A stretch of 43,329 bases of DNA from an uncultured Patescibacteria group bacterium (GTDB taxonomy: Bacteria > Patescibacteriota > Microgenomatia > UBA10105 > UBA927), in assembly GCA_937921305.1 (NCBI GenBank), contig CAKZSU010000007.1, positions 1 to 43,329 of the forward strand. The letters run 5' to 3'. Within the stretch, counting starts at the first letter, position 1, and each line of letters starts with the position of its first letter. Both the position numbers and the translations under genes were made by a program. The notes below the pieces were generated by a model. That model worked only from the letters and a program-made list of their open reading frames with translations, made no database searches and was not told where the DNA came from. This document shows positions 1 through 31,585 of this stretch, piece after piece.

Positions 1-226
1 AAGGTATAATATAGAGAGGTCGAAAAATTATCAACGAATCTTCTCTTTGAAACATTCGTTTTTTATACAATAATAATTTTCTTAATGTAATTCCCTCATT
101 TAGGAGAAATGCTATGACAGTATTATATCTTGATAAAAATAAAGCAGTTTGTTTTTCGTCATCAGCCATCCAATCATATGGCATTCCAAAAGGAATAAGA
201 ATAATCTTATTTTTCAGGAATTTCAT
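1..226 (-). CDS. Hypothetical protein, N-terminal part only (gene runs off the left window edge)
   Basis: ATG at 226-224 opens a minus-strand frame (MKFLKNKIILIPFGMPYDWMADDEKQTALFLSRYNTVIAFLLNEG...). I translated it by hand and found no stop for 75 codons to position 2. It is missing from the supplied track only because it is open-ended. It diverges from the glycosyltransferase genes. The N-terminus is faintly reminiscent of GT1-type exopolysaccharide transferases, but that is weak. Confidence 0.3.
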   Translation of the reverse strand, partial: MKFLKNKIILIPFGMPYDWMADDEKQTALFLSRYNTVIAFLLNEGITLRKLLLYKKRMFQREDSLIIFRPLYIIP

Positions 227-249
227 AACTTCTAAAATAATATAAAAAC

Positions 250-2615: not shown

Positions 2616-2625
2616 GAATAAATAA

Positions 2626-3561
2626 TTACTTTTTCATCTTAAGAAAAACTTCATATAAATTATAGCCGACTATAAATAGTAAAATCTGAAAAATTTGAAC
2701 TAATCTTGCAGGTATATCTTGAAAATGAAATATACAATAAAGGGCATCTTTTAAATTGTTTTTATTCCAATCCCATGAAGAAAATGGAATATTTTGTTGA
2801 TATAAAATTTTCTCTACAAGCTTATTTTCGATCCCCGTTTGAATAAATCGTTTCACCAAATATAAGATAGAAAATCTTATATTATTTATTCTATGATTTA
2901 CCACAATTGATCCAATGTATATAAATACATGCCCTCTGTAAAGGAGTCGAAGGCAAAACTCTAGATCTTCTGCCCCTAAGAAAAATTTCCCATATCTTCT
3001 TCCAAGCATAGTATTAAACATTTCTTTACCTAATTTATTTCTTCGTAAGCATATACATGCGCTAAAAATAAGATCTGGATATCTCAATTGTTCTATATCA
3101 TTCTTTCGTTCAGTAAGAGCAAAAACCCATGAAAGATGCTTGAAAAATAATTTATAGTATCTTAATCTATTTTCCATAAAATCTCCAACAATCTTTCCTC
3201 CTATTGCAGTTGCTTCTGGAAAATTTATTAAAGCAGAAGAAAATTTGATTAAAATCTCTCTCTCTACAGAGATATCATCATCAATGAAGAGTATGTGATT
3301 ATATCTTGACTTTTTTATTCCCGTATTTCTCACAAAAGAAATCCCTTCTTTTTCTTCTTTTATAAGAGAAAAATGTCTATTTCGTTTCAAAAAACGTTGA
3401 ACAACTTGATCTGTACGGTCTGCGCTATTATTATTGACGATAATAACTTCCCATTTCCCTTGATAGGTTATAGACTCTATTCTTCTTAATGTTTCTTCTA
3501 AGTTATCAGCCCTATTTCTTGTTGGTATTATGATCGAAAAACTTGGAAGATTTTTCTTCAT
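2626..3561 (-). CDS. Glycosyltransferase, family 2 (GT-A fold)
   Basis: FSIIIPTRNRADNLEETLRRI N-terminal GT2 signature and DxD-like FIDDDI. The track start at 3618 is a TTG, so I prefer the internal ATG at 3561 (MKKNLPSFSIIIP). The start is uncertain. Confidence 0.8.
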   Translation of the reverse strand: MKKNLPSFSIIIPTRNRADNLEETLRRIESITYQGKWEVIIVNNNSADRTDQVVQRFLKRNRHFSLIKEEKEGISFVRNTGIKKSRYNHILFIDDDISVEREILIKFSSALINFPEATAIGGKIVGDFMENRLRYYKLFFKHLSWVFALTERKNDIEQLRYPDLIFSACICLRRNKLGKEMFNTMLGRRYGKFFLGAEDLEFCLRLLYRGHVFIYIGSIVVNHRINNIRFSILYLVKRFIQTGIENKLVEKILYQQNIPFSSWDWNKNNLKDALYCIFHFQDIPARLVQIFQILLFIVGYNLYEVFLKMKK

Positions 3562-3751
3562 TTTGAAAAAATAATTTCTCTTATTACAAAAGATTCCTAT
3601 GTTTCTATTCTTTAACAATTCTTTTATTCATTTTTTAAAAATATGTATTACATATAAAAATATGCAATACAGTAAGGAAAATATAAACAATCTAAAGATA
3701 TAATCGTGCCAATTTATCTATTAAATTACTAATAACTATAATTCAATTTAT

Positions 3752-4438
3752 TTATAATATAATCTCTCCCTCTCTCATCTCTAACACTCTTTTGCAATGT
3801 TTTTTTATATATTCTCTCCACTGGCTTACCATAAGAATCGTTTTTTCTTGATGAAAAAATGTTTTGATTTTTTTGAAAGATTTCTCCCTAAACTGTTCAT
3901 CGCCTACCGCCATATGTTCATCGAGAAGAAGAATATCTGGATCAGCATGAACAGCTATAGAAAATCCAAGGCGAAGCTTCATACCCTGAGAATACGTAAA
4001 AAGCGGCGTGTCAATAAATTGTTTAATATCTGCAAATTCAATAATACTTTGTATTTTTTCATCAATATCTCTCTTATTCATGCCAAGAAGAAGTCCACTG
4101 ATATAAATATTTTGATATCCTGTCAATTCAACATTAAATCCAGCTTCTAAATCTAGAATCGAAATAACTCTACCATATACGCTAACTATTCCTGATGTTG
4201 GTGTAGTAATTCCAGCAATAATTTTTAATAGCGTTGTTTTTCCGCTTCCATTGTGACCAATAATCCCAATAATTTCTCCTTTGTATATTGTCAGATTGAT
4301 ATGCTTTAACGCCCAAAATGTCTCATTCCTTCCTTTGAAAAATTTTTCCACAAGCGTTGGCTTTTCGTGATGAATCTCATATGACTTGCTGACATCTATG
4401 AGTTGAATCGCTATGTCTGAATTCTGTTTCTTCCTCAT
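3752..4438 (-). CDS. Polysaccharide/teichoic-acid type ABC exporter, ATP-binding subunit (Wzt/TagH-like, no C-terminal glycan-binding domain)
   Basis: Walker A GHNGSGKTTLLK, signature-like YSQGMKLRL and Walker B ILLLDE. It lies 3 nt downstream of an ABC-2 permease on the same strand. Confidence 0.85.
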   Translation of the reverse strand: MRKKQNSDIAIQLIDVSKSYEIHHEKPTLVEKFFKGRNETFWALKHINLTIYKGEIIGIIGHNGSGKTTLLKIIAGITTPTSGIVSVYGRVISILDLEAGFNVELTGYQNIYISGLLLGMNKRDIDEKIQSIIEFADIKQFIDTPLFTYSQGMKLRLGFSIAVHADPDILLLDEHMAVGDEQFREKSFKKIKTFFHQEKTILMVSQWREYIKKHCKRVLEMREGEIIL

Positions 4439-4441
4439 ATA

Positions 4442-5227
4442 TTACAACCAATCGTCGAAATGTTTGCTTTCTCTTAAGAAAGTTGCTACTCCTAAAAAAA
4501 CCCCAAACGCGATCGTCAAAAGGTTTGCCGTAAGCATCGCTGGTCCAGGAGCAGCGGAATGAATCAATCCATTCTGAAGCAATTGAATCGGCGATGTCAA
4601 AGGATTAAACCTCCAGAGCCAGAGCAATTCTCGCGGAATCAAATGAAGTGAATAAATAATTGGTGTTGCATAAAACCAAACAATAAGAATCGCTTGAACA
4701 AAAAAGTTCACATCGCGAAACCGCACATTTAATGCGGAGGAAAACAAGCTCACTCCTGAGGTAAAAATAAGCAATAAAAATAATGCAAAGACACTCACGA
4801 TAATTCCCGAAAATGAAAACGTTCCTATCGCAAAAACCGCGATCAAAAAAAGTCCAAATGAAATAAGCAAATGAACAAAATTGGATAAGACAATCGACAA
4901 AGGAATCACTACTCGAGGGAAAGACGCTTTTTTAATAAGATTTCGTTCAAATACAATCGATGACGTTGCTTTTGTCAAAGATAATGAAAAAAAATTCCAC
5001 GCAAGCAATCCAATAAATAAATGATGAAAGTAATACGGAATAGGCTCGCGGACAAAAAATCGGAATATAAATCCAATAACAAGCATCTGAAGGATAGGAT
5101 TAAGAATCATCCATAAAAACCCAAACATCGTATTCTTATATCGAGCAAGCAATTCTTTTTTTGTCATTTCATATAAAAGTTCGACAAAATGTTGAAATCG
5201 CTCGCGTTTCGTTTTCATGTGCCTCAT
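4442..5227 (-). CDS. ABC-2 type exporter permease (Wzm/TagG-like)
   Basis: 261 aa, about 6 hydrophobic helices and an N-terminal ...ELLARYKNTMFGFLWMILNP... motif typical of ABC-2 polysaccharide export permeases. Adjacent to the ATPase. Confidence 0.8.
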   Translation of the reverse strand: MRHMKTKRERFQHFVELLYEMTKKELLARYKNTMFGFLWMILNPILQMLVIGFIFRFFVREPIPYYFHHLFIGLLAWNFFSLSLTKATSSIVFERNLIKKASFPRVVIPLSIVLSNFVHLLISFGLFLIAVFAIGTFSFSGIIVSVFALFLLLIFTSGVSLFSSALNVRFRDVNFFVQAILIVWFYATPIIYSLHLIPRELLWLWRFNPLTSPIQLLQNGLIHSAAPGPAMLTANLLTIAFGVFLGVATFLRESKHFDDWL

Positions 5228-19878: not shown

Positions 19879-21363
19879 TCACTCAGTTGGATTCACCACC
19901 ACAGACTTTAACCTACTCATTGCCTCAAGCGAATACCGAATTCCTTGTACACCCAGTCCAGACGCTTTTATCCCCATGAACGGGAAATGGTCTGGCCCGC
20001 GTTGTGGCGATCCGTTTATTTGCACTGTTCCAACAGGCAACCGATCCGCAATCCGACGCGCAGCAGATTCATGCAAAGAAAAAACGCTCGCTTGCAAGCC
20101 ATACGCAGATGACGCAATAATTTCGATCGCTTCATCAATGGAAGCAATATCAATAAACGATACAATAGGACCAAAGGTTTCTTCTTTCACAACGCGCATA
20201 TCGTTTGATACATTGGTTAAAATCGTTGGATCGATATACGCGCCTCGTCTACTTCCTCCTGAGACAATTGTCGCGCCTTGGGAAACAGCATCTTGAATAA
20301 CGCGTTCTATCTCTTCCGCAGCCTTCTCGGAAATCACCGGACCAACAAGACTTGTTGCGTCGTCTCGAGGGTCGCCGACATGAATCATTGTGTTCATGTA
20401 TTCCAACACGAGAGGAAGAAGGCGATCTCGCGTTTCTTTCATCGCAAGTACATACTTTATACCTGTGCATCGTTGCCCCGCGTACGCAAACCCCCCTCTC
20501 ACGATTTCTTTTGCGGTTAATGACATGTCCGCATCCGGAAGAACAACAACCGGATTATTTCCTCCGCACTCACATAACAATGGCTTCATACCAACCCGTT
20601 GCGCCATTGCCTGCCCAACACTTGAACTGCCAGTAAACGCGATCATGGAAATTCCAGGATGCGTCGTAAGATAATCCCCAATTTCTCTTCCCTCTCCTGT
20701 TATACAACTGATGATGTTTTTGGGAATACCTGCTTTCACAAACGCTTGTGTCAACATCAATCCCGATATACTTCCCTGTGTTGGCGGTTTGACAACGACC
20801 GCGTTTCCCATGAGAAGGGCGGGTGCTACTTTCGACGCGACAAGATTCAAAGGATAATTAAATGGTCCAATGGCAAGAATAACACCATGCGGAACGCGTT
20901 CAACATGCGACACAATATCCTCTTTATATCCCGGAAACACATCGCTTTTGATCGCATAGCCGTAGAGATTTATCACTTCATACGTGCAAAATTCAATACT
21001 ATCCGCTGTTCTCAACACTTCACTTTTTGCTTCATACCTGCTTTTCCCAATTTCAACAATAAGCATCTCAGTGAAAAAAGATTCATAATCCCGAAGAATC
21101 TGCGCGGCACGCTTGATCATCGTCATTTTTTCTTTCAGTGATACATGTCGCCACTCTTGCTGCGCTCTTGCGGCGCGCTGAATCACATCGTCAATTTCTT
21201 CTCGTGTCACAGCCTGTACATATCCAATGATCGATCCATCATGAGGAAAATGAATAGGAATACACCGTCCCGACGAGCTTGTTTTCCATGAAACTCCATT
21301 AAAATATCGATATGTTTTTGGATTGTCTCGTTGTTTTATGTCTTGAAACAAATTATCAGTCAT
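19879..21363 (-). CDS. gapN: Non-phosphorylating NADP-dependent glyceraldehyde-3-phosphate dehydrogenase (GapN-type aldehyde dehydrogenase)
   Basis: FNYPLNLVASKVAPALLMGNAVVVKPPTQGSISGL closely resembles the Streptococcus GapN segment as I recall it. Catalytic LCECGGNNP and EETFGPIV. Confidence 0.8.
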   Translation of the reverse strand: MTDNLFQDIKQRDNPKTYRYFNGVSWKTSSSGRCIPIHFPHDGSIIGYVQAVTREEIDDVIQRAARAQQEWRHVSLKEKMTMIKRAAQILRDYESFFTEMLIVEIGKSRYEAKSEVLRTADSIEFCTYEVINLYGYAIKSDVFPGYKEDIVSHVERVPHGVILAIGPFNYPLNLVASKVAPALLMGNAVVVKPPTQGSISGLMLTQAFVKAGIPKNIISCITGEGREIGDYLTTHPGISMIAFTGSSSVGQAMAQRVGMKPLLCECGGNNPVVVLPDADMSLTAKEIVRGGFAYAGQRCTGIKYVLAMKETRDRLLPLVLEYMNTMIHVGDPRDDATSLVGPVISEKAAEEIERVIQDAVSQGATIVSGGSRRGAYIDPTILTNVSNDMRVVKEETFGPIVSFIDIASIDEAIEIIASSAYGLQASVFSLHESAARRIADRLPVGTVQINGSPQRGPDHFPFMGIKASGLGVQGIRYSLEAMSRLKSVVVNPTE

Positions 21364-21372
21364 ATATCAGCA

Positions 21373-22104
21373 CTATACACAATATTTCACGATACAAACA
21401 GTCATATTATCGGTGTTACGATGATGTTCCGCAAGAAAGCACAATGTTTTGGCAGCGTCTTGCAATGATTCTTGTGTATTTTCCACGCGAGACACCACAT
21501 CATGAATTTCTTGTTCAGAAACGACATCCACTACCCCGTCTGTCGCAAGAATGAACATATCATTTGGACGAAATCTATCTGAATAAAAAAACATTTCTGG
21601 AGGATTCGGGTCAATCCCAATCGCGCGAGTAATATACCCATGTGAATCTCGATGTATTGGCGTCAACAGCACAATTGATTGGTTGCGAAAGAGATAAATC
21701 CGAGAATCTCCAACATGACAAATATAAAAATTTTTCTCGGCAAAAAATAACAATGACATCGTACTTCCCAGCCCCAACGCAAACCCTTCATCCTTGCGTT
21801 TATTGTACACGCGAAGATTGATAAACCGAATCATTTTTTGGACAAGAAGTCTTTTTTCTTTCCATTCCGATGGTTTTTGCTTTCCCAAGCGAACCGCCCA
21901 TACCGCAGATTCAACCGTTAACGCGGAAGCAACATCGCCATGAGGAAGTCCACCAATTCCATCAGCAATAACAAAAATATGATCGCTGTCATGAAACACG
22001 GCATCTTCCTGTTGAGGACGGTTCCCTTGCAATTGATATGACGCGGAAAGAACTGTTCTTGACGCAACCTTATACTTTAATCCAATAGGATCAGGAAGTC
22101 GCAT
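21373..22104 (-). CDS. PP2C-family Ser/Thr protein phosphatase
   Basis: [30 protein letters not shown] and DNMTVCIV motifs. 243 aa. The start overlaps the sod stop by 14 nt. Confidence 0.85.
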
Positions 22105-22696
22105 ATCGTCGTTCTACTTCTGTCCAATTCACCACATGCCACCACGCTTGAATATATTCTGCGCGTCTGTTTTGATACTTGAGATAATATGCGTGCTCCC
22201 ACACATCGAGACCAAGAATCGGCGTCTTTCCTTCCATCAACGGATTATCTTGATTCGGCGCATCCACAATCTTTACCGATCCGTCTGATTCCTTAACCAA
22301 CCACACCCAACCGCTCCCAAAGCGTCCCATACCTTTCGTAGAAAAATGCTCCTTGAATGTTTCAAAGCTTCCGCACTCTCGGATTATCGCGTCTAACAAC
22401 GCTCCAGACGGTTGAGTTGATCCACCCGGCTTCATGATGTCCCAAAACAAGGTGTGATTATAATGTCCACCACCATCATTTCGAACTTTTCCCCGAATAT
22501 CTTCAGGGATCTGATCAAGATTCGCCAGAATCTCTTCTATAGAAGTTTCAAACCACGCGGGATATTTCGACAACGCGTCGTTGAGATTTGCCACATACGC
22601 GCCGTGATGCTTATCGTGATGAATTTGCATTGTTTGTTCATCGATATATGGCTCTAATGCGTTATATGCGTATGGAAGATCGGGAAGCGTAAACAT
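22091..22696 (-). CDS. sodA: Fe/Mn superoxide dismutase
   Basis: HHDKHH and [15 protein letters not shown] metal-ligand motifs. 201 aa. AAAGGAGG SD upstream. The Fe versus Mn type is not resolved. Confidence 0.92.
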
Positions 22697-22825: not shown

Positions 22826-25090
22826 ATGGCAAAACGATCAAAACAGCGACAAAAAAAATCATCGTCTATCCCAAAAAAACGCGAGTCAACAACAAAACGA
22901 TGGCGATTCCAAAATTTCCATAATCGCAACAAATTCCGAATGATTCTCATGGGAGGAACGGCAATGGCGATTGGCTTTATTGTCTTCCTCTATTTTTTTA
23001 TTTTCAAAGATCTCACTTCTCCAACTAAACTTGGCGAGTATGACATTCCGCTTGCGACAAAAATATACGACCGAAACGGAACGCTCTTATTTGACATTTT
23101 TGCGGAAGAAAATAGAACCTACATCCCTCTTTCCGATATTCCTCTTCATCTTCAACAAGCGACAATCGCGATAGAAGACAAGACATTTTATCAGCATCAA
23201 GGCGTTAACCCCATTGGAGGGATACTTCGAGCCGCGATAGCAACAATCACAGGAAGACAGTTGCAAGGCGGATCAACCATCACCCAACAATTGGTAAAAA
23301 ACGCGTTACTTTCTTCGGAACGGACCGTGCAACGAAAACTTCGAGAAATTGTTCTCGCAATCCTTGTGGAAATGCAATATCCAAAAGAAAAAATTCTTGA
23401 ACTATATCTGAATCAAGTGCCGTACGGCGGAACGGCATGGGGGGTTGAGTCGGCGGCGCAAAAATACTTTGGCAAACGAGCCAAAGAGTTAACGCTTGCT
23501 GAGTCGGCGCTTCTTGCCGGACTTCCACAAGCGCCATCTCTCTATTCGCCGTTTGGACCACATCCAGAACGAGCGAAGGAACGACAAAAAGATGTGCTTC
23601 GACGAATGGTGGAAGATAAGTACATTACCCAAGAAGACGCTGATGCGGCGATAAACGAACCGCTTGTTTACAAACAAGAGACAAATATTAAAGCGCCACA
23701 TTTCATCATGTATGTCAAGCATCTCCTTGAACAGAAATATGGACAAGCAAGAGTTGAACGAGGCGGGTTACGCGTTACAACAACATTAGATTTGCCTCTT
23801 CAAGAATACGCGCAAGCCACGGTCGCGGCAGAAATTAAATCCCTAGAAAGACTTCGCGTTGGCAACGGCGCAGCGCTCATCACAAAACCAGCAACAGGAG
23901 AAATTCTGGTGATGGTTGGAAGCGCCGACTACTTCGCCACACCTTCTGGAAACTTCAATGTCACCACAGCGCTTCGTCAACCCGGTTCGGCAATCAAACC
24001 CATCAATTACGCCATGGGCATAGAACGAAAACTCGTCACTCCAGCAACGATGTTCTTGGATATCCCCACATGTTTTGCCGGAGGACCGGGACAACCGTCG
24101 TACTGCCCCAAAAATTATGACGGATCGTTTCGCGGCCCTGTGCACCTTCGATTCGCGCTCGGAAATTCCTACAACATCCCCGCGGTAAAAATGCTCAAAA
24201 TGAACACCGTAAGAGATTTTGTCGCCTCGGCAAGCGCGTTCGGTCTTGACACGATTAAAAATCCAGACAGATACGGTCTATCCCTCACGCTCGGCGGCGG
24301 AGAAGTTCGTATGACAGATATGGCAGAGGCATTCAGCGTGTTTGCAAATGGCGGCATACGAAAAGATCTTGTCGCGATTCTTCGCGTCGTTGACAAAAAT
24401 GGAGCCATTCTTGAAAAATATAAAGACGAAAATCTTAATAGGGATCCCCCATCGCAATCGGTCATTCAAGGTGAACGCGTCATCTCAACGGAAACCGCTT
24501 TTCTCATTTCTCATATCTTGCTTGACAATAACGCGCGGTCCGCGGCGTTTGGACCAAACTCAAACCTTGTCATTCCGGGAAAAGCCGTATCAGTAAAAAC
24601 CGGAACAACTGACGATCTTCGAGATAACTGGACGATTGGATACACACCGAACTACCTCGTCGCAGTATGGGTTGGCAATAATGACTATAGCCCAATGAAT
24701 CGATCTCTTGTTTCCGGCGTGACTGGCGCCGCTCCAATTTGGAACAAATTGATGAGAAAAGTATTAGAAGGAAAACCTGACATGTGGCCGCAAAAACCAT
24801 CAGGCGTCGTCGGCACCGAAGTATGCGCAATCACAGGATTATTGCCACCAAATGAAAACGGAGACAAAGGATGTGCGACGCGATTTGAATATTTTATTGA
24901 AGGAACCGTACCAAAAGAACGAGAGCAACTACGACAATTTGCCATTATCGATAAAGAAACACAAAATATCGCCGAACCGGGAAAAACAGAAAACACAGAA
25001 CTGCAAGAACGACAAGTGGTGAAAGACGCGTTTTCCACATACTGTCTTGACTGCCCACAAGAAGGTAGAAGACCAACATTCGTGCGATAA
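22826..25090 (+). CDS. Bifunctional class A penicillin-binding protein (PBP1A: GT51 transglycosylase + transpeptidase), copy 1
   Basis: EDKTFYQHQG, GGSTITQQ and RKLREI (GT51). SAIK, SYN and KTGT (transpeptidase). Basic N-terminal tail plus a TM anchor. Confidence 0.92.
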   Translation: MAKRSKQRQKKSSSIPKKRESTTKRWRFQNFHNRNKFRMILMGGTAMAIGFIVFLYFFIFKDLTSPTKLGEYDIPLATKIYDRNGTLLFDIFAEENRTYIPLSDIPLHLQQATIAIEDKTFYQHQGVNPIGGILRAAIATITGRQLQGGSTITQQLVKNALLSSERTVQRKLREIVLAILVEMQYPKEKILELYLNQVPYGGTAWGVESAAQKYFGKRAKELTLAESALLAGLPQAPSLYSPFGPHPERAKERQKDVLRRMVEDKYITQEDADAAINEPLVYKQETNIKAPHFIMYVKHLLEQKYGQARVERGGLRVTTTLDLPLQEYAQATVAAEIKSLERLRVGNGAALITKPATGEILVMVGSADYFATPSGNFNVTTALRQPGSAIKPINYAMGIERKLVTPATMFLDIPTCFAGGPGQPSYCPKNYDGSFRGPVHLRFALGNSYNIPAVKMLKMNTVRDFVASASAFGLDTIKNPDRYGLSLTLGGGEVRMTDMAEAFSVFANGGIRKDLVAILRVVDKNGAILEKYKDENLNRDPPSQSVIQGERVISTETAFLISHILLDNNARSAAFGPNSNLVIPGKAVSVKTGTTDDLRDNWTIGYTPNYLVAVWVGNNDYSPMNRSLVSGVTGAAPIWNKLMRKVLEGKPDMWPQKPSGVVGTEVCAITGLLPPNENGDKGCATRFEYFIEGTVPKEREQLRQFAIIDKETQNIAEPGKTENTELQERQVVKDAFSTYCLDCPQEGRRPTFVR

Positions 25091-25113
25091 CCTTCTGAAT
25101 ACGAAAAACATAT

Positions 25114-25140
25114 ATATCTCAACAAGACGAGATATTTTCT
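25114..25140 (+). terminator. Weak hairpin + T-tract after PBP1A-1
   Basis: ATATCTC-AACAAGAC-GAGATAT followed by TTTCT. The stem is AU-rich, so this is a marginal intrinsic terminator. Confidence 0.3.
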
Positions 25141-25185
25141 ATATTGTCTCTCTCATTTTCTTCATGATATAAGCACGATGTATCT

Positions 25186-27384
25186 ATGAGAAAGAAAAAA
25201 AGAAGAGCGAAGCACGCATTCCGTATCATGCTTCGTATTTGCCGACACATCATAAAGAAGACATATAAAAAGGTAAGAATTCGCCTTTCAATGATGCATC
25301 TTTTTCTTCATATTCGCCTAAAACGCGCGATTCAAGCAACGAAAAGAAAAAACGATGAAAAAAAACAGAGATTAAAGAAGTACAGAATTATACGCATACT
25401 CTTTTATCTCTTCCTAGGAAGCATAGGAATAATTCTTTGCGCGATTGTGCCGATAAGTATGTACATCATTATTTCAGGCCTCCCTCATCCCAATCTTTTG
25501 AAACATCGTCATATTCCAAAAACAACAAAACTATTTGATCGCAATGGCATTCTGTTATATGAAATTTTCGATGAAGAAAACAGAACACCTATTCCTCTCA
25601 CAGAAATTCCGGATACTATAAAAAACGCGGTAATCGCTATTGAAGATAAGGATTTTTTTATCCATAACGGCTTTTCGCTCTCCGGGATTATACGAGCGAC
25701 GAGAGAAACCATATTAAAAAAACAACTCCAAGGCGGCTCAACAATCACGCAACAGCTTGTCAAATCAACGCTTCTTACGCCGGAGATAACTCTTGAGAGA
25801 AAAATCAAAGAACTTATCCTCGCCTATTGGACAGAACGATTGTACACAAAAGAACAGATTCTTGAGATGTACCTCAATGAGGTTTCCTTCGGCGGAACCG
25901 CATGGGGGATTGAATCAGCAAGTCAAACATATTTTGGAAAATCTGTCAAAGACCTCACGCTTGCCGAAACGGCATTTCTTGCCGGTCTTCCTCAATCACC
26001 TTCGCTCTACAGTCCATTTTCAGGAAATAAAGAAAAAGCGATAGAACGACAACATAATGTCCTTCGTCGAATGGTTGAAGATGGATATATCACTGAAGAA
26101 CAAGCGCAAGAAGCGAAACAGCAACCGCTGATATTCGTGCAACCAAAGATATCGATCCAAGCACCACATTTTGTATGGTATGTCAAAGATTACCTTGAAC
26201 GACGGTATGGAAAAACTCTTGTGGAACGAGGGGGGTTACGAGTTGTAACAACGCTTGATTTGCCACTTCAACAACAGATTGAATCCATTGTCGCTAACAA
26301 TATTAAAATACTTGCAAATCTTCAAGTAACAAACGGCGCGACGCTCGTAACCAATCCAAAGACCGGCGAAATTCTTGCGATGGTGGGAAGCAACAATTAC
26401 TTTGACACACAGAATGATGGCAATGTCAATGTTACAACTTCTTTAAGACAACCGGGATCAAGCATCAAAGTTGTTACCTACGCAAAAGCGATTGAAGATA
26501 AAAAAATTACTGCGGCAACAATTTTTGAAGATCTTCCCGTCTCATACGATCTTCCCGATCAACCGCCATATAAACCTGTGAATTACGACGGACGATTTCA
26601 TGGACTAGTTCCAACGCGTCTCGCGCTGGGAAATTCCTACAACATCCCCGCGGTGCGAGTACTTCACATGATTGGCATTGACGCAATGATTGCGCAAGGA
26701 GAGCAAATGGGCATTGACACATGGAAAGAACGCAATCGCTTCGGACTCTCGTTAACGCTTGGAGGAGGAGAAGTGACCATGATTGATATGGCAGAAGTAT
26801 ATGGAACGCTCGCGAATCTTGGAACGCGCGTGGATCTTATCCCGATACAATCAATTGAAAATTGTAAAGGAACACCTCTCTCTATACAGCAACCATCTCC
26901 TGTGCAAGCGCTCTCTCCTGAAACAGCATGGATCATTACAAACATTTTGAGCGATAATTGGGCAAGAACACAAGCGTTTGGACCAAACTCGAAACTTGTC
27001 ATACCCGGAAAAACCGTTGCGGTCAAAACAGGAACAACCGATCAAAAACGAGACAACTGGACAATTGGATACACGCCATCATATGTTGTCGCCGTATGGG
27101 TCGGTAATAATGATAATAAACCAATGCATCCCTATCTTACATCAGGAATCACTGGATCGGCGCCGATTTGGCATGAAATCATGAAAACACTTCTCGAAGA
27201 AAGACCTGATGAAATACAACTAAAACCAGATCGCGTTATTGCCATTCCATGTTACGGCAACCGCGTTGAATATTTCATTCAAGGAACTGAACCGAGACAC
27301 TGGTGCGGATTTTCTCCTACCCCAACACAGAAACAAAAAAATCAGCAGTTCAATATAACCAGTCAAGATAAAAGAGAAGATTAA
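25186..27384 (+). CDS. Bifunctional class A penicillin-binding protein (PBP1A), copy 2, with about 65-aa highly basic cytoplasmic tail
   Basis: EDKDFFIHNG, GGSTITQQ, SSIK, SYN and KTGT. It is collinear with copy 1 and shares blocks such as LRRMVED.YIT.E, ERGGLRV.TTLDLPLQ and RFGLSLTLGGGEV. Confidence 0.92.
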   Translation: MRKKKRRAKHAFRIMLRICRHIIKKTYKKVRIRLSMMHLFLHIRLKRAIQATKRKNDEKKQRLKKYRIIRILFYLFLGSIGIILCAIVPISMYIIISGLPHPNLLKHRHIPKTTKLFDRNGILLYEIFDEENRTPIPLTEIPDTIKNAVIAIEDKDFFIHNGFSLSGIIRATRETILKKQLQGGSTITQQLVKSTLLTPEITLERKIKELILAYWTERLYTKEQILEMYLNEVSFGGTAWGIESASQTYFGKSVKDLTLAETAFLAGLPQSPSLYSPFSGNKEKAIERQHNVLRRMVEDGYITEEQAQEAKQQPLIFVQPKISIQAPHFVWYVKDYLERRYGKTLVERGGLRVVTTLDLPLQQQIESIVANNIKILANLQVTNGATLVTNPKTGEILAMVGSNNYFDTQNDGNVNVTTSLRQPGSSIKVVTYAKAIEDKKITAATIFEDLPVSYDLPDQPPYKPVNYDGRFHGLVPTRLALGNSYNIPAVRVLHMIGIDAMIAQGEQMGIDTWKERNRFGLSLTLGGGEVTMIDMAEVYGTLANLGTRVDLIPIQSIENCKGTPLSIQQPSPVQALSPETAWIITNILSDNWARTQAFGPNSKLVIPGKTVAVKTGTTDQKRDNWTIGYTPSYVVAVWVGNNDNKPMHPYLTSGITGSAPIWHEIMKTLLEERPDEIQLKPDRVIAIPCYGNRVEYFIQGTEPRHWCGFSPTPTQKQKNQQFNITSQDKRED

Positions 27385-28004
27385 TTTGTGACAAAAATTC
27401 TCATTGTGTGTTGAGAAACACCGGAATTGAAAATTTCCCATTCTCCAGACGAAACGAAACGATATTCGAACACGCCTCCTGAACCAATGGCCTGCCCCAT
27501 GTCGATATCTCCTTGCTTACTTTTTATCCACATTTGTTGACGGCTTGTATTAACAAATGCAACCATTGTTCCGGATTTCACTGAAAGCGTCTCGGGAGAA
27601 AATCCGGAGTCTGTGTACACAATCGTATTTCCTCCGTGAACAACTTGCTGCTGAGTGGGAGTCGGCATCCGCGTTGGTTGCGGTGTTGAAACAGGTTGTC
27701 CTCCTTTTGTTTGATCAGGTTGTGATGAAGTCGGCGCTGGAGATAGAGTAACCCCTGTAGGATTTGGTTGATTGGCGATAATTACCATGGTTGGTTGCGG
27801 GGTAATAGTTGGCGCTCTGCCTAGTAATCGTTCATCAATGAGTTGTCGAAGCGACCTTCCTATTTCTGGAGTGGGTGTAGAAGTCACCTCTTGCTGTTGA
27901 TTATTCACGACACGTCTTGGTTGACTTCTATTTACGATACCCCACGATAGAAGCGCGGCGATGGTTACTATAGCTAAAATAGAAAAAATTGCGAGATTCT
28001 TCAT
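27381..28004 (-). CDS. Membrane-anchored protein with Pro/Thr/Gln-rich linker and C-terminal cupredoxin-like beta domain lacking copper ligands
   Basis: TM anchor MKNLAIFSILAIVTIAALLSWGIV, then a PT/Q-rich linker. The C-terminal TIVYTDSGFSPETLSVKSGTMVAFVNTS...GVFEYRFVSSGEWEIFN...HTMRIFV follows the cupredoxin strand pattern but has no Cys. The start is ambiguous: the ATG at 28004 is preferred, while the track start at 28052 makes a TAATG overlap with the ykuK-like stop. Confidence 0.6.
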   Translation of the reverse strand: MKNLAIFSILAIVTIAALLSWGIVNRSQPRRVVNNQQQEVTSTPTPEIGRSLRQLIDERLLGRAPTITPQPTMVIIANQPNPTGVTLSPAPTSSQPDQTKGGQPVSTPQPTRMPTPTQQQVVHGGNTIVYTDSGFSPETLSVKSGTMVAFVNTSRQQMWIKSKQGDIDMGQAIGSGGVFEYRFVSSGEWEIFNSGVSQHTMRIFVTN

Positions 28005-28051
28005 AATATGGTATATAACGCGGGACAGGAACGCGATTGAAGGCAGGAACA

Positions 28052-28540
28052 TTATGTATGTCTATCGGCGACTTTACTTGCGCCGTAGCTGTTTGGTTTT
28101 GTTTTAACGATATATCCCGACCCGCGAATCATTCCAACAATTTCTGCGATCATGTCTTTTGTTTCGCCGGACGGACCGATATCAACATGTATTTCTACAT
28201 TATACTTCGTTATCCCGTCTTTTTCAAATAAATTGAGAATTGTTTCGGCAGTTTCAAGAGAATATATTGCTTCCTCATACATCCGTTGACGAAGCGCGTA
28301 TCGTTGGTGTTTTACAACCCGTCTCCAAAAGTAAATACCGCCTTTCCCTTTTTTATGAACAACAATTGCCGTAACAAAGTCAACCCCACCTGATTCTTTT
28401 ACTTGAGAGTCTGTTCCAACAACCAACCGGTATGCTTGATCCTCGTCAAACGAAACAAAGGACTTAATTCTCTCAGACAACTCATCAAGCGTCACAAGAC
28501 CATACGTTGGACTATGGAAGACAATCTCATTCTTTTTCAT
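28052..28540 (-). CDS. YkuK/DUF458 family RNase-H-like protein
   Basis: 162 aa. LVVGTDSQ...VTAIVVHKKGKGGIYFW...IHVDIG.SG.TKDMI...GASKVADRHT matches my memory of the Bacillus YkuK family layout. The start overlaps the cyclase stop by 14 nt. Confidence 0.7.
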   Translation of the reverse strand: MKKNEIVFHSPTYGLVTLDELSERIKSFVSFDEDQAYRLVVGTDSQVKESGGVDFVTAIVVHKKGKGGIYFWRRVVKHQRYALRQRMYEEAIYSLETAETILNLFEKDGITKYNVEIHVDIGPSGETKDMIAEIVGMIRGSGYIVKTKPNSYGASKVADRHT

Positions 28541-29219
28541 AGAAAACCGATCGGATGCTTTGGATCCACTCGTATCCCCATATCACCAACCAAAGAAGCG
28601 AAAATCCATAAAAGAGATCTTCGATCGGCATGGAAAAAATTCTGATGCCGCTCATATACGCAGAATCGTAGATAACAATAGGCCTTGCGGTAAGGTACCC
28701 ATTAAATATCACCGTCAAACCAATCACTATACCAGTAAATATCATCGCGACAGACGATATGTATCCTTTTCGAAAAAGGAAAAAGAATGACAATAAGAAC
28801 CCACAGAGAATAAACACAGAAAATAAATACCACAAACGATTCACATACGCATACACTCCGACAATAAAGAAAAGCAACACACTTCCATATCTCGCGACCA
28901 ATGGGACAAGAAAAATTTTTCGAGGAAAGTGATGCTTCGCGTTCACCCATAAGACAAGACATCCCCACGGCACCGTGAAGAAAAATAATATTTCTTCGAT
29001 AGGAAGCGGTCCAATGATTATTCCTAATGTATATAAAGGATTAAAACTCCACCATATATCTGTAACCAACGCGTCCCAAAAGATATACACGAACGCCACT
29101 GGAATAATCGACGCTAATGCTGAAAAAATATGAGGGAATTTTCCTCCTTTATATACCAATGGTCCAAGAAGAGAGCTTCCAAGAATAAGGCAATTAAATA
29201 GCAAATATTCGCTGTTCAT
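28527..29219 (-). CDS. crtY: Lycopene cyclase, fused two-repeat CrtYc/CrtYd-type (lycopene cyclase domain x2)
   Basis: 230 aa and about 7 TM helices, with two internal repeats. Each repeat carries the diagnostic P-x-E-E/D motif (PLPIEEILFFFTVPW and SMPIEDLFYGFSL). ATGA overlap with the upstream crtI-crtB stop. Confidence 0.75.
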   Translation of the reverse strand: MNSEYLLFNCLILGSSLLGPLVYKGGKFPHIFSALASIIPVAFVYIFWDALVTDIWWSFNPLYTLGIIIGPLPIEEILFFFTVPWGCLVLWVNAKHHFPRKIFLVPLVARYGSVLLFFIVGVYAYVNRLWYLFSVFILCGFLLSFFFLFRKGYISSVAMIFTGIVIGLTVIFNGYLTARPIVIYDSAYMSGIRIFSMPIEDLFYGFSLLWLVIWGYEWIQSIRSVFYEKE

Positions 29220-31477
29220 GTAATGAATTGTCGCAACACCTCTGCGATAACGCGAATCTTTGGAGGTTTAACTTTTTTCTTCCAAACAATCATTGGATCA
29301 GCATAGATAGCATCTGCGGTTTTTTCATACAGCTCTGCAGCTGCTTGAATCGGCGGTCTATATTGCTTTGGAATATACGAAAACCCTTTTTCAGCTTGAC
29401 GCTGAATTCGTTTATACGCCTTGATATGCGCTCGAATAAACGAGCCCCATTGTTTTGGATCTCGCCTAATCTCTTCGGTGTATCCTAAATAATTTCTTCC
29501 AAGGCCTTCATCTTCCGCAACATCGCGAATAAAATTGACATATTGCATGGCTTTTCCTTGGAGTCTAGCGGTTTCATTCGCCGATTCTGGAAGATCAAGA
29601 ATTCTTGCCATCATCAACCCGACTACTTCAGCCGAGCCATACATATACGATTCTAATTCTGAAAATTTCATGTACGATCGTTTCGTGAGATCACCTCTCA
29701 TCGATGTCCAAAATGCTTCAATCCATTTCCAATCAAATTGTTTTCGCTTCGCAAGAGAAATAAATTCTCGAACAGTTTGATGCTCTGTTGCTCCATTTTT
29801 CCAACACAACCGAGTCTCTTTCCACAACGATTCAAATGCGTCGGTATCAGGCGTTGGACAATCAATCAGATCGTCAACAGTACGAACATACGCGTACAAT
29901 GCAAACACATCTTCTTTTACTTGTCCTCGGAAGAATATGCTTGAATAATAATACGTCACGCTTCCTCGCTGAAAAATCCCTTGTTTGTCAGATGTCGGAG
30001 CGCCGATTTGATCAGCGACGAGCTTCGCGGAAATAAGCGTCATAGGAACTCCAACGCCCGGTTGAACATATTGACCGGCGTAATACAATCCATAAATCTT
30101 TGCGCTTTTATTCCGCGGACGAAACCATAACGATTGTGTCCATGTATGCGCAAGCCCCAACGCTGTTCCGCCATACGCATGGTAGCGATCATGAAACTGA
30201 TCTGGTCTAAACAATTCCTTAACACAAATATACCCAGAAAACGATTCTCCGGAAAACGACTCTATTTTTTCAATCACCGCATCAGCCAATGCGGCAAGCT
30301 CCGACGAGGCGTAATCACCACGAGCTCCAAGAGGAATAAGAAGAAATAATTCATCGGCCTCTTTTGGAACAATTGATCGATCGGTAACAGAACGAGCGGA
30401 AACATAAAACGACGGATCGGAAGGAATGGATCGCGCGTCAAAAATATCTGAAAAATTTTTCTTCCAATCAGAAGAAAAATACAAAGTGTGGTGAACAAAA
30501 TGTTTCAACCTTTTCTGAATACCAAGATAGACAAGAAGCGCCGATATGCCAATCATCTTTTTTCTCCACCATTGTTCATCCCATGACTGATAGTCTTTTG
30601 GGAGCAACTGTGTTTCGAGATGATGAAGATCGCAAGCACCAACAACAACAGAAGCATCATAGACACGATCACCCACCCTCACTCCAGATACTCGTCCGTC
30701 TTTAACACGAATATGTTGCACATCTTCACCCGTATGAATCTCAACTCCAAACAATCGCGCAAGTTGTTCTAACGCGGAAATAACCATCCCAATCCCTCCT
30801 TTTGGATACCAAACACCTTGACCAAAATCCGCCCACGACAAAATACTATAAAACGATGGGGTTGCATATGGCGATCCACCTAAAAACACAGACGGAAATG
30901 TGAGAATTTTTGCCAGACGATCATCGCGAAAGTATGCATATGCTTCATCATGCCAACTTTTCAATGAAAACACGCGGAGAAATGTTTGAATATCTTTGAT
31001 ATTTTTTACATCGAAAAAAAATTTCCATGAAAAAATATCTTGCCAAATCAAACGAACAACCGATTCGTACGCCAGCCGTTTTTGCTCCAAATACGCAATA
31101 AGTTTTTTTCCTGATCCGGGAAGGATGGCATCAAACACTTCTTGATTCTGCTCAAGAGAATCATTCAATGTAACTACACTACCATCATGAAAATACACCC
31201 GATATCGAGGTTCTAAACGAATAAGATCGTAATAGTCTGATGACGACTTACCAAACAGTTGAAAGAATGATTCAAACACTTCCGGCATAAGATACCACGA
31301 CGGTCCCATGTCAAAAGAAAAACCATCTTTCTTTAACACAGCAGCTCGACCGCCTAACACTGGTTGTTTTTCAAACAATCGCACCCGCCATCCTCTTGAG
31401 GCAAGAAGAGTTGCTGTCGCAAGTCCCGAGACTCCACCTCCGATCACAACAACATCAGAAGACACATGATTTGCCAT
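29216..31477 (-). CDS. Fusion protein: phytoene desaturase (CrtI family, aa 1 to about 490) + phytoene synthase (CrtB/SQS_PSY, aa about 505-753)
   Basis: N-terminal FAD fold VVVIGGGVSGLATATLLASRG...LGGRA and the CrtI-type DMGPSWYLMPEVFESFF. The CrtI C-terminal region is YYAGQYVQPGVGVPMTLISAKLVA. A short linker QIGAPTSDKQG (about 29965-30005) follows. Then come the synthase motifs YYYSSIFF, YAYVRTVDDLID (first Asp-rich), MYGSAEVVGLMM and YVNFIRDVAEDEGLGRNYL (second Asp-rich). It is one uninterrupted 753-codon frame. Confidence 0.8.
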   Translation of the reverse strand: MANHVSSDVVVIGGGVSGLATATLLASRGWRVRLFEKQPVLGGRAAVLKKDGFSFDMGPSWYLMPEVFESFFQLFGKSSSDYYDLIRLEPRYRVYFHDGSVVTLNDSLEQNQEVFDAILPGSGKKLIAYLEQKRLAYESVVRLIWQDIFSWKFFFDVKNIKDIQTFLRVFSLKSWHDEAYAYFRDDRLAKILTFPSVFLGGSPYATPSFYSILSWADFGQGVWYPKGGIGMVISALEQLARLFGVEIHTGEDVQHIRVKDGRVSGVRVGDRVYDASVVVGACDLHHLETQLLPKDYQSWDEQWWRKKMIGISALLVYLGIQKRLKHFVHHTLYFSSDWKKNFSDIFDARSIPSDPSFYVSARSVTDRSIVPKEADELFLLIPLGARGDYASSELAALADAVIEKIESFSGESFSGYICVKELFRPDQFHDRYHAYGGTALGLAHTWTQSLWFRPRNKSAKIYGLYYAGQYVQPGVGVPMTLISAKLVADQIGAPTSDKQGIFQRGSVTYYYSSIFFRGQVKEDVFALYAYVRTVDDLIDCPTPDTDAFESLWKETRLCWKNGATEHQTVREFISLAKRKQFDWKWIEAFWTSMRGDLTKRSYMKFSELESYMYGSAEVVGLMMARILDLPESANETARLQGKAMQYVNFIRDVAEDEGLGRNYLGYTEEIRRDPKQWGSFIRAHIKAYKRIQRQAEKGFSYIPKQYRPPIQAAAELYEKTADAIYADPMIVWKKKVKPPKIRVIAEVLRQFIT

Positions 31478-31483
31478 ATGGTA

Positions 31484-31492
31484 CTTATATCA
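31484..31492 (-). promoter_or_regulatory. Extended -10 element TGATATAAG, 6 nt upstream of the crtI-crtB ATG (leaderless candidate)
   Basis: The minus strand reads TGATATAAG-TACCAT-ATG. There is no SD and no obvious -35, which is consistent with an extended -10 promoter. Confidence 0.4.
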
Positions 31493-31554
31493 CAAGAGAA
31501 TAAACCGCTTCCATTGCAAGAACGCAATTAAAGACCTCTTAGTTTAGATTGTAA

Positions 31555-31585
31555 ATATCCCACGAAATAAATTCTCGTGGGATAT
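31555..31585 (-). terminator. Intrinsic terminator-like hairpin downstream of the RRM gene
   Basis: Perfect 11-bp stem ATATCCCACGA/TCGTGGGATAT with a 9-nt loop, 43 nt past the rrm stop. Only a short T-tract follows on the minus strand. Confidence 0.55.

Follow-up and report, generated by a model that had tools for sequence, protein, structure and literature searches.

The carotenoid locus

The window, by which we mean the whole analysed stretch of 43,329 nucleotides, belongs to a genome whose GroEL sequence places it in Gottesmanbacteria. It carries a 753-codon open reading frame that contains no internal stop in the ORF list and encodes two enzymes of the carotenoid pathway, a CrtI-type desaturase domain followed by a CrtB-like synthase domain (Table 1). 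A sequence-only reading had already described one continuous frame with a complete CrtI-type flavoprotein in front of a synthase, and the ORF list together with the Pfam and NCBIfam matches (TIGR02734, PF01593 and PF00494) bears this out; the strand, absent from that description, is the minus one. The C-terminal region of the CrtI part has the segment PGVGVPMTLISAKLVA (residues 473–488 of the fusion protein), and the CrtB part starts with IFQRGSVTYYYSSIFF (residues 501–516). The linker DQIGAPTSDKQG between them is as short as had been claimed (12 residues), but its earlier placement at about 29965–30005 was only approximate. The functional motifs are well preserved. In an alignment of 29 full-length sequences (the fusion protein and 28 homologues), G13, G15 and G18 of the FAD-binding motif were unchanged in every one. 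The two Asp-rich motifs, correctly reported before as intact, correspond to the Mg2+/diphosphate-binding signatures DxxxD and DxxED (DDLID at 535–539 and DVAED at 652–656). D539 of the first is invariant, with D535 and D536 conserved in at least 90% of the sequences, and so are R651, D652, E655 and D656 of the second.

Table 1. Features of the carotenoid locus and its surroundings (positions in the window).
Feature	Position	Strand	Basis
crtI-crtB fusion gene	29216..31477	minus	753-codon ORF, ATG start, Pfam/NCBIfam domains
CrtI-type FAD-dependent phytoene desaturase domain (predicted), residues 5–489	30011..31465	minus	TIGR02734, PDB matches
FAD dinucleotide-binding motif GGGVSG, residues 13–18	31424..31441	minus	Sequence and alignment
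Inter-domain linker, residues 489–500	29978..30013	minus	Alignment
Phytoene/squalene-synthase-family (CrtB-like) domain, residues 501–750	29228..29977	minus	PF00494
First Asp-rich motif DDLID, residues 535–539	29861..29875	minus	Sequence and alignment
Second Asp-rich motif RDVAEDE, residues 651–657	29507..29527	minus	Sequence and alignment
Fusion-type CrtYcd lycopene cyclase, 230 aa	28527..29219	minus	PF18916 (two repeats), TIGR03462
13-bp hairpin 3' of the upstream RRM gene	31555..31585	minus	RNA fold
RNaseH_like gene (PF04308), overlapping the adjoining genes	28052–28540	minus	ORF list and Pfam
Gene for a 223-aa protein, weak cupredoxin-like match, overlapping	27381–28052	minus	ORF list and Pfam

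The start codon of the next gene overlaps the TGA of the fusion by 4 nt (ATGA at 29216–29219). This gene had been taken for a CrtYc/d-type cyclase, and rightly so, as it has two Lycopene_cyc repeats (PF18916) and scores 70 bits with TIGR03462, over a cutoff of 39.4, i.e., it is a fusion-type CrtYcd. Its PxEE and PxED motifs (PIEE, residues 73–76, 28992–29003; PIED, residues 198–201, 28617–28628) are invariant in six cassettes. A cyclase gene was found directly 3' of the fusion, or of a split crtB, at the related loci L081, L083, L084, L086, L087 and L091. The conserved unit is a two-gene cassette, the crtI-crtB fusion and the overlapping CrtYcd gene, set in variable housekeeping contexts. In the window, the RNaseH_like gene and the gene of the 223-aa protein are possibly co-transcribed with it; both recur in L091, but L081, L083 and L086 lack them downstream of the cassette, and they are not a conserved part of it. 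On the other side, the hairpin downstream of the RRM gene (dG −18.2 kcal/mol, z −5.4, none of 200 shuffles as good) is probably the terminator of that gene and would set the 5' limit of the carotenoid operon. Near the start codon of the fusion, a scan for consensus promoters found nothing that stood out from background.

Identity of the two domains

The N-terminal domain matched Amino_oxidase (PF01593, residues 16–491, E 2e-35, 123 bits vs. a threshold of 19.8), and with the crtI_fam model TIGR02734 it reached 454.1 bits (cutoff 238.1; residues 9–497 on model positions 1–494 of 504), which makes it a member of that family. The best-scoring NCBIfam model was NF058655, CrtID (bifunctional phytoene desaturase/3,4-desaturase), at 525.6 bits. 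We have not filed the protein as CrtID since this is below the equivalog cutoff of 640. Searches of PDB sequences returned 4dgk (E 6e-58) and 4rep (E 1e-55), and the AlphaFold2 (AF2) model has the desaturase fold (TM 0.89 with 4REP and 0.74 with 4DGK), so that a GxGxxG Rossmann motif and a CrtI fold come together in this domain. Among the GTDB matches listed, its nearest relatives outside CPR are of Bacteroidota, Actinomycetota and archaeal type, a distribution that matches the “CrtIb” subfamily of C40/C50 pathways (PMC9907078). By family and predicted fold, the N-terminal domain is most likely a CrtI-family phytoene desaturase.

The synthase domain matched SQS_PSY (PF00494, residues 503–741, E 3e-39, 135.8 bits vs. 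a gathering score of 26) and is complete, given that the match spans profile positions 2–262 of 263. Judged from its sequence it is also divergent. A score above a CrtB equivalog cutoff would imply specificity for GGPP, but all these cutoffs were missed (NF045921, 70.9 vs. 500 bits; NF045686, 58.8 vs. 550; NF042419, 43.5 vs. 480), and for this reason we file the domain as SQS_PSY-family and not as a proven CrtB equivalog. The top NCBIfam match, HpnD, was also below its cutoff (88.4 vs. 278.6 bits). The one match among PDB sequences was a weak one, 5iys (E 1.6e-9), which comes from Enterococcus and was deposited as a phytoene synthase. Free-standing relatives were found at 52–58% identity, some of them carrying the name phytoene synthase, and the domain most probably acts as CrtB.

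Proposed pathway

We consider it likely that the fusion is a true bifunctional enzyme of carotenoid synthesis, maintained by selection in a Candidatus Gottesmanbacteria-lineage CPR bacterium, and that it leads from GGPP through phytoene to lycopene, with cyclisation to follow. With its two Asp-rich Mg2+ sites, the C-terminal CrtB-like domain would form phytoene by condensing two molecules of a prenyl diphosphate, most likely GGPP, the N-terminal domain, dependent on FAD, would desaturate phytoene to lycopene, and the translationally coupled CrtYc/d membrane cyclase would close the ionone ring or rings to give gamma- or beta-carotene. O2 has been reported as the electron acceptor of Pantoea CrtI and, by analogy, may play this role here. 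The likely gains from fusion would be a 1:1 stoichiometry and a synthase held at the membrane-associated desaturase. Substrate chain length, final product, intramolecular hand-over of phytoene and electron acceptor are all parts of the pathway that we infer. No gene for a GGPP/FPP synthase, a rhodopsin or Blh was found in the 43-kb window and the 10 kb beyond its start. As CPR genomes generally encode little biosynthesis, we count substrate supply against the proposed function.

A C30 pathway, in which a CrtM-like synthase would join two FPP into 4,4'-diapophytoene and a CrtN-like desaturase would turn it into a diapocarotenoid, in place of lycopene or beta-carotene, would agree with the missed CrtB cutoffs, the best score of HpnD and the single weak PDB match of the synthase. 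It would also agree with the breadth of TIGR02734, which we take to cover dehydrosqualene desaturases besides CrtI, and FPP would be likelier than GGPP to be at hand in a CPR cell. Against this, the fusion is always coupled to a CrtYcd lycopene cyclase, its closest non-CPR desaturases (among the GTDB matches listed) are of the type used in C40/C50 pathways, some free-standing relatives of the synthase bear the annotation phytoene synthase, and models specific for CrtM or CrtN were absent from the 25 best NCBIfam matches. We regard the C30 route as unlikely.

Integrity of the fusion

The AF2 model of the full-length protein had a mean pLDDT of 94.6 and a pTM of 0.82, with both domains above 90. 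The linker (pLDDT about 82) appears in it as a short coil joining helices 477–491 and 498–505. In the fold search all ranked chains were desaturase-like, and none of the solved structures among them spanned both domains. Along the 29-sequence alignment the linker is variable in sequence and conserved in length. Of the 41 family sequences listed, some of them fragments, 32 have an 11-aa gap between the domains by HMM mapping; apart from two for which the mapping failed, all lie within 10–18 aa.

The gene is real and conserved, and purifying selection acts on it. Compared with the relative L091 (91% protein and 89% nucleotide identity, no indels), omega was 0.11 for CrtI, 0.16 for the linker and 0.15 for CrtB, and about 0.05–0.15 across the junction, with synonymous changes crossing the linker in frame. 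A fusion drifting neutrally or decaying, with one domain catalytically dead and the protein in effect monofunctional, is hard to reconcile with omega values of 0.11–0.15 in both domains, with FAD and Asp-rich motifs conserved over about 50% sequence divergence, or with the high pLDDT of both modelled domains. Its appeal comes from the Woesebacteria locus L087, which keeps crtB and the cyclase with no crtI nearby, so that the carotenoid module can evidently be dismantled, and from the reductive character of CPR genomes; we consider it very improbable.

The single frame at the linker, for which a check by read mapping had been advised, is upheld by other evidence: at least five independently assembled contigs, from different samples and assemblers, encode the identical 753-aa protein with 0–2 nt differences, and the junction frame is kept in 29/29 of the aligned divergent sequences. 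A sequencing or assembly indel joining overlapping crtI and crtB genes, conceivable in that close relatives have an overlap of about 10 nt where a single-base error could yield such a frame, is effectively refuted by these contigs, by the indel-free relative with its in-frame synonymous substitutions and by some 30 divergent full-length fusions with linkers alike in length, and retains a negligible probability.

Distribution and origin of the fused family

We found about 30 full-length fused homologues, at 50–55% identity, in Gottesmanbacteria, Pacebacteria and other CPR. In neighbor-joining (NJ) trees of each of the two domains they form one clade, and the other fusions fall elsewhere. The clade also includes a split member, L086, where crtB begins with an ATG 10 nt before the stop of crtI. 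Merging these two frames produces a linker of about 11–12 aa, as in the fused family, and comparison with the split relatives indicates that the linker equals their CrtI tail plus their CrtB leader. In more distant split relatives (Saccharibacteria, Spirochaetes and archaea) crtI and crtB are overlapping or abutting. An origin of the fusion from overlapping genes is supported by these comparisons: within one CPR clade, ancestral crtI and crtB genes whose stop and start codons overlapped probably underwent a frame-merging mutation in the overlap, which fused the tail of CrtI with the leader of CrtB and left the conserved linker of about 11 residues. In-clade bootstraps (NJ, 200 replicates) were too low to tell a single fusion from several fusion and fission events, or ancestral split members from secondary ones.

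The scan of GTDB genomes had no CPR member among the matches listed, and its apparent full-length matches (residues ~5–750; Bacteroidota, Actinomycetota, archaea and others) turned out to be adjacent separate crtI and crtB genes. Long frames in Microbacterium and Curtobacterium were likewise rejected as CrtB-CrtI fusions, being stop-free frames of high-GC genomes with CrtB and CrtI in different frames.

Comparison with known fusions

The sequence-only reading had named no characterised bacterial desaturase-synthase fusion as a precedent. In the literature we likewise found no biochemical study of any bacterial CrtI/CrtB fusion; the architecture itself, however, is recurrent in databases and was already tabulated, as trimmed sequences and in both orders, among prokaryotes (Klassen, 2010; PMC2889829, Table S2), and the case for novelty is weakened. 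The protein of the uncultured marine bacterium HF10_49E08 (CrtI 1–466, CrtB 467–764 in that table) has, by its tabulated domain coordinates alone, the same order as the CPR fusion and a similar length (764 vs. 753 aa), whereas that of Clavibacter michiganensis NCPPB 382 (CrtB 1–302, CrtI 350–881; same table) has the opposite one. As the Microbacterium and Curtobacterium frames are not true fusions, our only source for the Clavibacter case is the literature. The CPR protein is a CrtI-CrtB bidomain in the strict sense, i.e., one ORF with CrtI N-terminal, reproducible over assemblies and relatives.

In databases we found at least eight further bidomain families (PF01593 and PF00494) with CrtI first (P0269, P0311, P0324, P0357, P0361, P0364, P0367 and P0383, where P0361 is WP_321986442.1 from an uncultured Lichenicoccus) and a family of about 815 aa with CrtB first (P0052–P0095). 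Their identity with the CPR family is 28–41% over the CrtI part, their linkers are 19–97 aa long, and they represent independent events, as they are scattered outside the CPR clade in the trees. The RefSeq name of one of these proteins is only “phytoene desaturase family protein.” Since fusions in both orders are on record, the catalogue of carotenoid enzyme architectures is unchanged. Three candidate prior descriptions were discarded: “CrtIb” is a desaturase subfamily (PMC9907078), “CrtBI” refers to two co-expressed Erwinia enzymes (PMC13192835), and a Thermomicrobium paper deals with separate genes.

A characterised counterpart exists in protists. The thraustochytrid CrtIBY of Aurantiochytrium has been proven to make beta-carotene from GGPP (Iwasaka et al., 2018, PMC5924542; Rius et al., 2023, PMC10016063). 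Like the CPR fusion, it and the related protist I-B-Y(-Blh) proteins have CrtI N-terminal to CrtB and a CrtYc/d-type cyclase next in order, but their cyclase is on the same chain, whereas that of the bacterium is a separate, coupled gene, and the CPR family includes no member longer than 892 aa with a cyclase domain. The long I-B proteins have linkers of 44–69 aa (vs. about 11 aa in the CPR family), share about 31–34% identity with it and form a remote clade in the NJ tree of either domain, which indicates that the CPR and protist fusions are independent. Neither a phylogenetic affinity to protist CrtIBY nor a role of the CPR family as prokaryotic donor of crtIBY is supported by these trees.

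A further type of fusion is that of fungi. Fungal CrtYB/CarRA/AL-2 proteins join an N-terminal cyclase to the synthase and leave the desaturase separate, so that the synthase and CrtYc/d families are those of the CPR cassette, but partner and order differ. [quoted passage not shown] CrtI-first constructs performed worse there than CrtB-first ones with a short rigid linker (Rabeharindranto et al., 2019, PMC6350077). The CPR family has CrtI first and a short linker, and its natural order is therefore not obviously optimal for the channelling of phytoene that the sequence-only reading had proposed.

Biological significance

The usual view is that CPR cells rely on hosts for lipids of this kind. 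More tentatively, the two-gene cassette could be a minimal, self-contained carotene factory by which some Microgenomatia-type CPR produce lycopene or beta-carotene themselves (to protect the membrane, to guard against oxidation or to supply a precursor of retinal), with the two domains packed rigidly and phytoene passed directly between them. We hold this doubtful as a whole; if true, it would contradict the view of host dependence and offer pathway engineers a compact scaffold of natural origin. For engineers, who have so far found the CrtI-first orientation inferior, the family is a compact scaffold in precisely that order. It is also a natural experiment in enzyme fusion, as a single clade has the gene pair both as separate, overlapping genes and as a fusion with an 11-residue linker derived from the old gene ends, so that comparing fused and split forms is straightforward. 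If the enzyme is active, some ultra-small CPR of the Gottesman-, Pace- and Woesebacteria type would have a compact two-gene route from prenyl diphosphate to cyclic carotenes, with a bearing on membrane protection and stiffening in oxic, lit habitats and on the source of retinal for CPR rhodopsins.

The single reading frame

The profile searches bear out the uninterrupted CrtI and CrtB frame of the sequence-only reading, and every motif that it quoted, from GGGVSG to RDVAEDE, was located where it had been placed. The single frame holds two full Pfam domains, a complete Amino_oxidase/CrtI-type flavoprotein (residues 16–491, E = 2e-35) and a complete SQS_PSY domain (residues 503–741, profile positions 2–262 of 263, E = 3e-39), and its N-terminal part reaches 454 bits, over a cutoff of 238, with the NCBIfam phytoene desaturase family TIGR02734.

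Coordinates of the carotenoid genes and motifs, and other proteins of the same domain order
Feature	Location or proteins	Strand or molecule	Remarks
crtI-crtB fusion ORF	29216..31477	minus	uninterrupted, 753 aa, ATG start
FAD motif GGGVSG	residues 13-18	fusion protein	
PGVGVPMTLISAKLVA	residues 473-488	fusion protein	
Linker DQIGAPTSDKQG	residues 489-500, nt 29978-30013	minus	
IFQRGSVTYYYSSIFF	residues 501-516	fusion protein	
Asp-rich motif DDLID	residues 535-539	fusion protein	
Asp-rich motif RDVAEDE	residues 651-657	fusion protein	
Fusion-type CrtYc/d cyclase gene	28527..29219	minus	230 aa, directly downstream of fusion gene, two Lycopene_cyc repeats
Other CrtI-CrtB bidomain proteins	P0269, P0311, P0324, P0357, P0361, P0364, P0367, P0383		linkers 19-66 aa

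The concern about two genes merged by a 1-nt indel could be answered without raw reads, by three comparisons. First, the identical 753-aa product was recovered by exact look-up from at least five contigs, which came from different samples and assemblers (ENA ERZ6864144 and ERZ6863697, Logan ERR9287890), with only 0–2 positions of the gene differing from the window. Second, a relative with 91% amino acid and 89% nucleotide identity (P0001, locus L091) had no indel across the 2,262 nt. The substitutions were mostly synonymous, and the synonymous ones traversed the linker in frame (omega was 0.11 in the CrtI part, 0.16 in the linker and 0.15 in the CrtB part, with 0.05 over codons 470–530). Third, about 30 full-length homologues (752–796 aa, 50–55% identity) have the same architecture. 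In an alignment of 29 sequences the FAD motif and both Asp-rich motifs were invariant or nearly so, while the junction, between two conserved blocks (PGVGVPMALISA and IFKxGSxTYYYSSLFF), varied in sequence and kept its length. By HMM mapping, 32 of the 41 family sequences listed (fragments counted) have 11 residues between the domains, and the remainder have 10–18, bar two in which domain mapping failed. The observation of a CrtI-CrtB fusion is correct and robust. P0030 (Ca. Pacebacteria, 892 aa), which belongs to the fused family, carries a low-complexity Ser/Asn-rich insertion of ca. 115 residues inside the CrtI domain and a linker of ca. 40 residues, indicating some tolerance of insertions at these two positions.

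A two-gene cassette

The assignment of the neighboring cyclase to the CrtYc/d type was confirmed by its two Lycopene_cyc repeats (Pfam, NCBIfam), which make it a fusion-type cyclase. Its ATG overlaps the TGA of the fusion gene in an ATGA arrangement. An overlapping Lycopene_cyc gene of ca. 224–230 aa also directly follows the fusion gene in the 91% relative and in two other genomes (loci L081 and L083/L084, on contigs of ca. 0.75–1.0 Mb). Where flanks were available, all the remaining flanking genes of these two genomes differed from those of the window, so that the conserved unit is the two-gene cassette. The cyclases of six cassettes share an invariant PxEE in the first half and an invariant PxED in the second.

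Between the fusion gene and the RRM-protein gene upstream of it lies a 13-bp hairpin (dG −18.2 kcal/mol, z −5.4), which suggests that the cassette has its own promoter; the consensus scan called none at 31478–31530 (minus strand). In this same stretch the ATG of the fusion gene has no Shine-Dalgarno sequence, unlike the RRM gene immediately upstream, which has AAGGAGGAAGGAGG. A −10-like hexamer, TATAAG, stops about 7 nt short of the ATG of the fusion gene, and the carotenoid mRNA might therefore be leaderless.

A different arrangement was seen in Ca. Woesebacteria GCA_021209405.1 (L087, 6001–7489), with crtB and an overlapping cyclase and neither a crtI gene nor a remnant found within 6 kb on either side. 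This CrtB is the nearest neighbor of the CrtB domain of the fused protein P0028. The desaturase half may have been lost from this cassette, or crtI may be in another part of the genome. Short-chain dehydrogenase (adh_short) genes near the carotenoid genes of three otherwise unrelated loci (L086, 7477–8232; L087, 433–1254; L085, 11775–12785) could encode a carotenoid-modifying enzyme or be a coincidence.

Origin of the fusion

In the 80 genome loci from other lineages that we surveyed for gene order, crtI (ca. 495 aa) and crtB (ca. 280 aa) are separate genes, most often with crtI first and frequently abutting or overlapping. The reverse order was found in some Actinomycetota and one Saccharimonadales locus, and crtI alone in a few. 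The nearest relatives outside the clade (39–43% identity) are likewise split, i.e., Saccharibacteria (L037, with an 11-nt crtI/crtB overlap), a gammaproteobacterial MAG, Spirochaetes, Thermoplasmatota and methanogen archaea. The clade itself also has split versions. At locus L086, CrtI (506 aa) ends in VSQMIKKRWS and CrtB (261 aa, 58% identical to the CrtB domain of the window) begins with MELKEQIFKNGS; crtB starts 10 nt upstream of the crtI stop and the cyclase comes next. Merging these frames would give a linker of about 11–12 residues, matching the fused family, which indicates that the linker corresponds to the old CrtI tail plus the old CrtB leader. One frame-merging mutation in the overlap would suffice to explain the fusion. 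The derivation of the family from overlapping genes appears clear. The fused proteins and the few split ones grouped in one clade in the neighbor-joining trees built for each domain. Branching within this clade was star-like with bootstraps mostly below 50%, so the split forms may be either ancestral or secondary.

Fusions in other lineages

The sequence-only reading knew of no characterized bacterial fusion of this kind, and in the literature we found neither a biochemical characterization of any bacterial CrtI-CrtB fusion nor a description of this CPR family. The architecture, by contrast, was already catalogued; the claim of novelty holds only in part. Klassen (2010, PMC2889829, Table S2) listed fusions in Clavibacter michiganensis NCPPB 382 (CrtB 1–302, CrtI 350–881) and in the uncultured marine bacterium HF10_49E08 (CrtI 1–466, CrtB 467–764), the latter with the domain order of the window. 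Among eukaryotes, the thraustochytrid CrtIBY is a natural desaturase-synthase-cyclase fusion of demonstrated activity (PMC5924542; PMC10016063), and Thecamonas has the same fusion plus Blh (Rius 2023, PMC10016063).

The architecture also proved recurrent when 1.84 billion cluster representatives were searched exhaustively with phmmer. Clustered at 50% identity, the CPR family accounted for one full-length representative and two fragment representatives (P0245, P0127), next to at least eight other, mutually divergent clusters with CrtI first (776–843 aa; Table). One of them, from an uncultured Lichenicoccus (Acetobacteraceae; P0361, RefSeq WP_321986442.1), is named only "phytoene desaturase family protein", so its fusion is invisible in the annotation. 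A family of ca. 815 aa has the opposite order (P0052–P0095, e.g., P0054 and P0094; SQS_PSY 17–276, then CrtI 320–800). It is carried on contigs of up to ca. 1.08 Mb, and no cyclase gene was called alongside its member at L085 (8001–10448). Several CrtI-CrtB proteins reach 1,100–1,660 aa. Long metagenomic proteins in which a C-terminal extension follows CrtI and CrtB are P0277 (1449 aa; cluster members P0392–P0401), P0284, P0320, P0323, P0339, P0342 and P0386. The last domain of P0277 is a beta-carotene 15,15'-dioxygenase (BCD/Blh), and in this it resembles the quadrifunctional fusion of Thecamonas (Rius 2023).

By HMM mapping these other fusions have linkers of 19–97 residues, and both domain trees place them outside the CPR clade, indicating that CrtI and CrtB fused repeatedly. 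The neighbor-joining trees did not support the CPR family as donor of the protist fusions, and Rius et al. (PMC10016063) make no mention of a prokaryotic fused donor. The fusion is a new, conserved CPR family of a catalogued, uncharacterized bacterial architecture.

Host and proposed function

The named relatives of the GroEL of the window (82–85% identity) are all Candidatus Gottesmanbacteria, and the named members of the fusion family and its split relatives are Gottesmanbacteria, Pacebacteria, Woesebacteria and "Patescibacteria group". Other genes of the window (ribonucleotide reductase, purine salvage, SOD, GroEL, LeuRS) are the housekeeping set usual for a small genome; a search of the window and of 10 kb past its start found no prenyl-diphosphate synthase, rhodopsin or Blh gene. 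A low-GC island (1–5227, 26–30% GC vs. ca. 42% elsewhere) with three glycosyltransferase genes and an ABC-2 exporter pair runs on for those 10 kb (L092, 1–10000) with Wzy_C, Polysacc_synt, radical-SAM/SPASM and more GT4 genes, and is probably a horizontally acquired surface-polysaccharide cluster. Two tandem class-A PBP (PBP1A) paralogues of 754 and 732 aa, each with transglycosylase and transpeptidase domains, occupy 22826–27384 (plus strand). A few kb from the cassette (19879–22696) are a Fe/Mn superoxide dismutase, a PP2C phosphatase and an aldehyde dehydrogenase; the dismutase fits an oxygen-exposed lifestyle, which an O2-dependent CrtI reaction would also need.

CrtB-type synthases condense two GGPP head-to-head into phytoene via Asp-rich Mg2+ sites, CrtI is a membrane-peripheral FAD enzyme whose desaturations lead to lycopene, and CrtYc/d proteins are integral-membrane lycopene cyclases. 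On these functions the cassette would take GGPP to a cyclic carotene in three steps, encoded in the order desaturase, synthase, cyclase. The reading of the gene as a bifunctional fusion is supported. The structure of the 753 residues was predicted with very high confidence (mean pLDDT 94.6, pTM 0.82) and has the linker as a short coil (residues 492–497, pLDDT ca. 82) between two helices, which is more in keeping with two domains fixed in place than with a floppy tether. Its N-terminal domain superposes on gamma-carotene desaturase 4REP (TM 0.89) and Pantoea CrtI 4DGK, and the fold search found no solved chain covering both domains. Phytoene may be handed over inside the fusion protein. In synthetic fusions made in yeast, the CrtI-CrtB order was poorer than CrtB-CrtI, and the outcome depended on the properties of the linker (PMC6350077).

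The synthase domain is divergent, falling below every NCBIfam CrtB equivalog cutoff with HpnD as best match, also far under its cutoff, and this makes a C30 pathway, with CrtM/CrtN-like domains acting on FPP, a real rival. We consider it unlikely, since the cyclase is an obligatory partner of the fusion and the desaturase is akin, among the matches listed, to the Bacteroidota, Actinomycetota and archaeal type that serves C40/C50 pathways.
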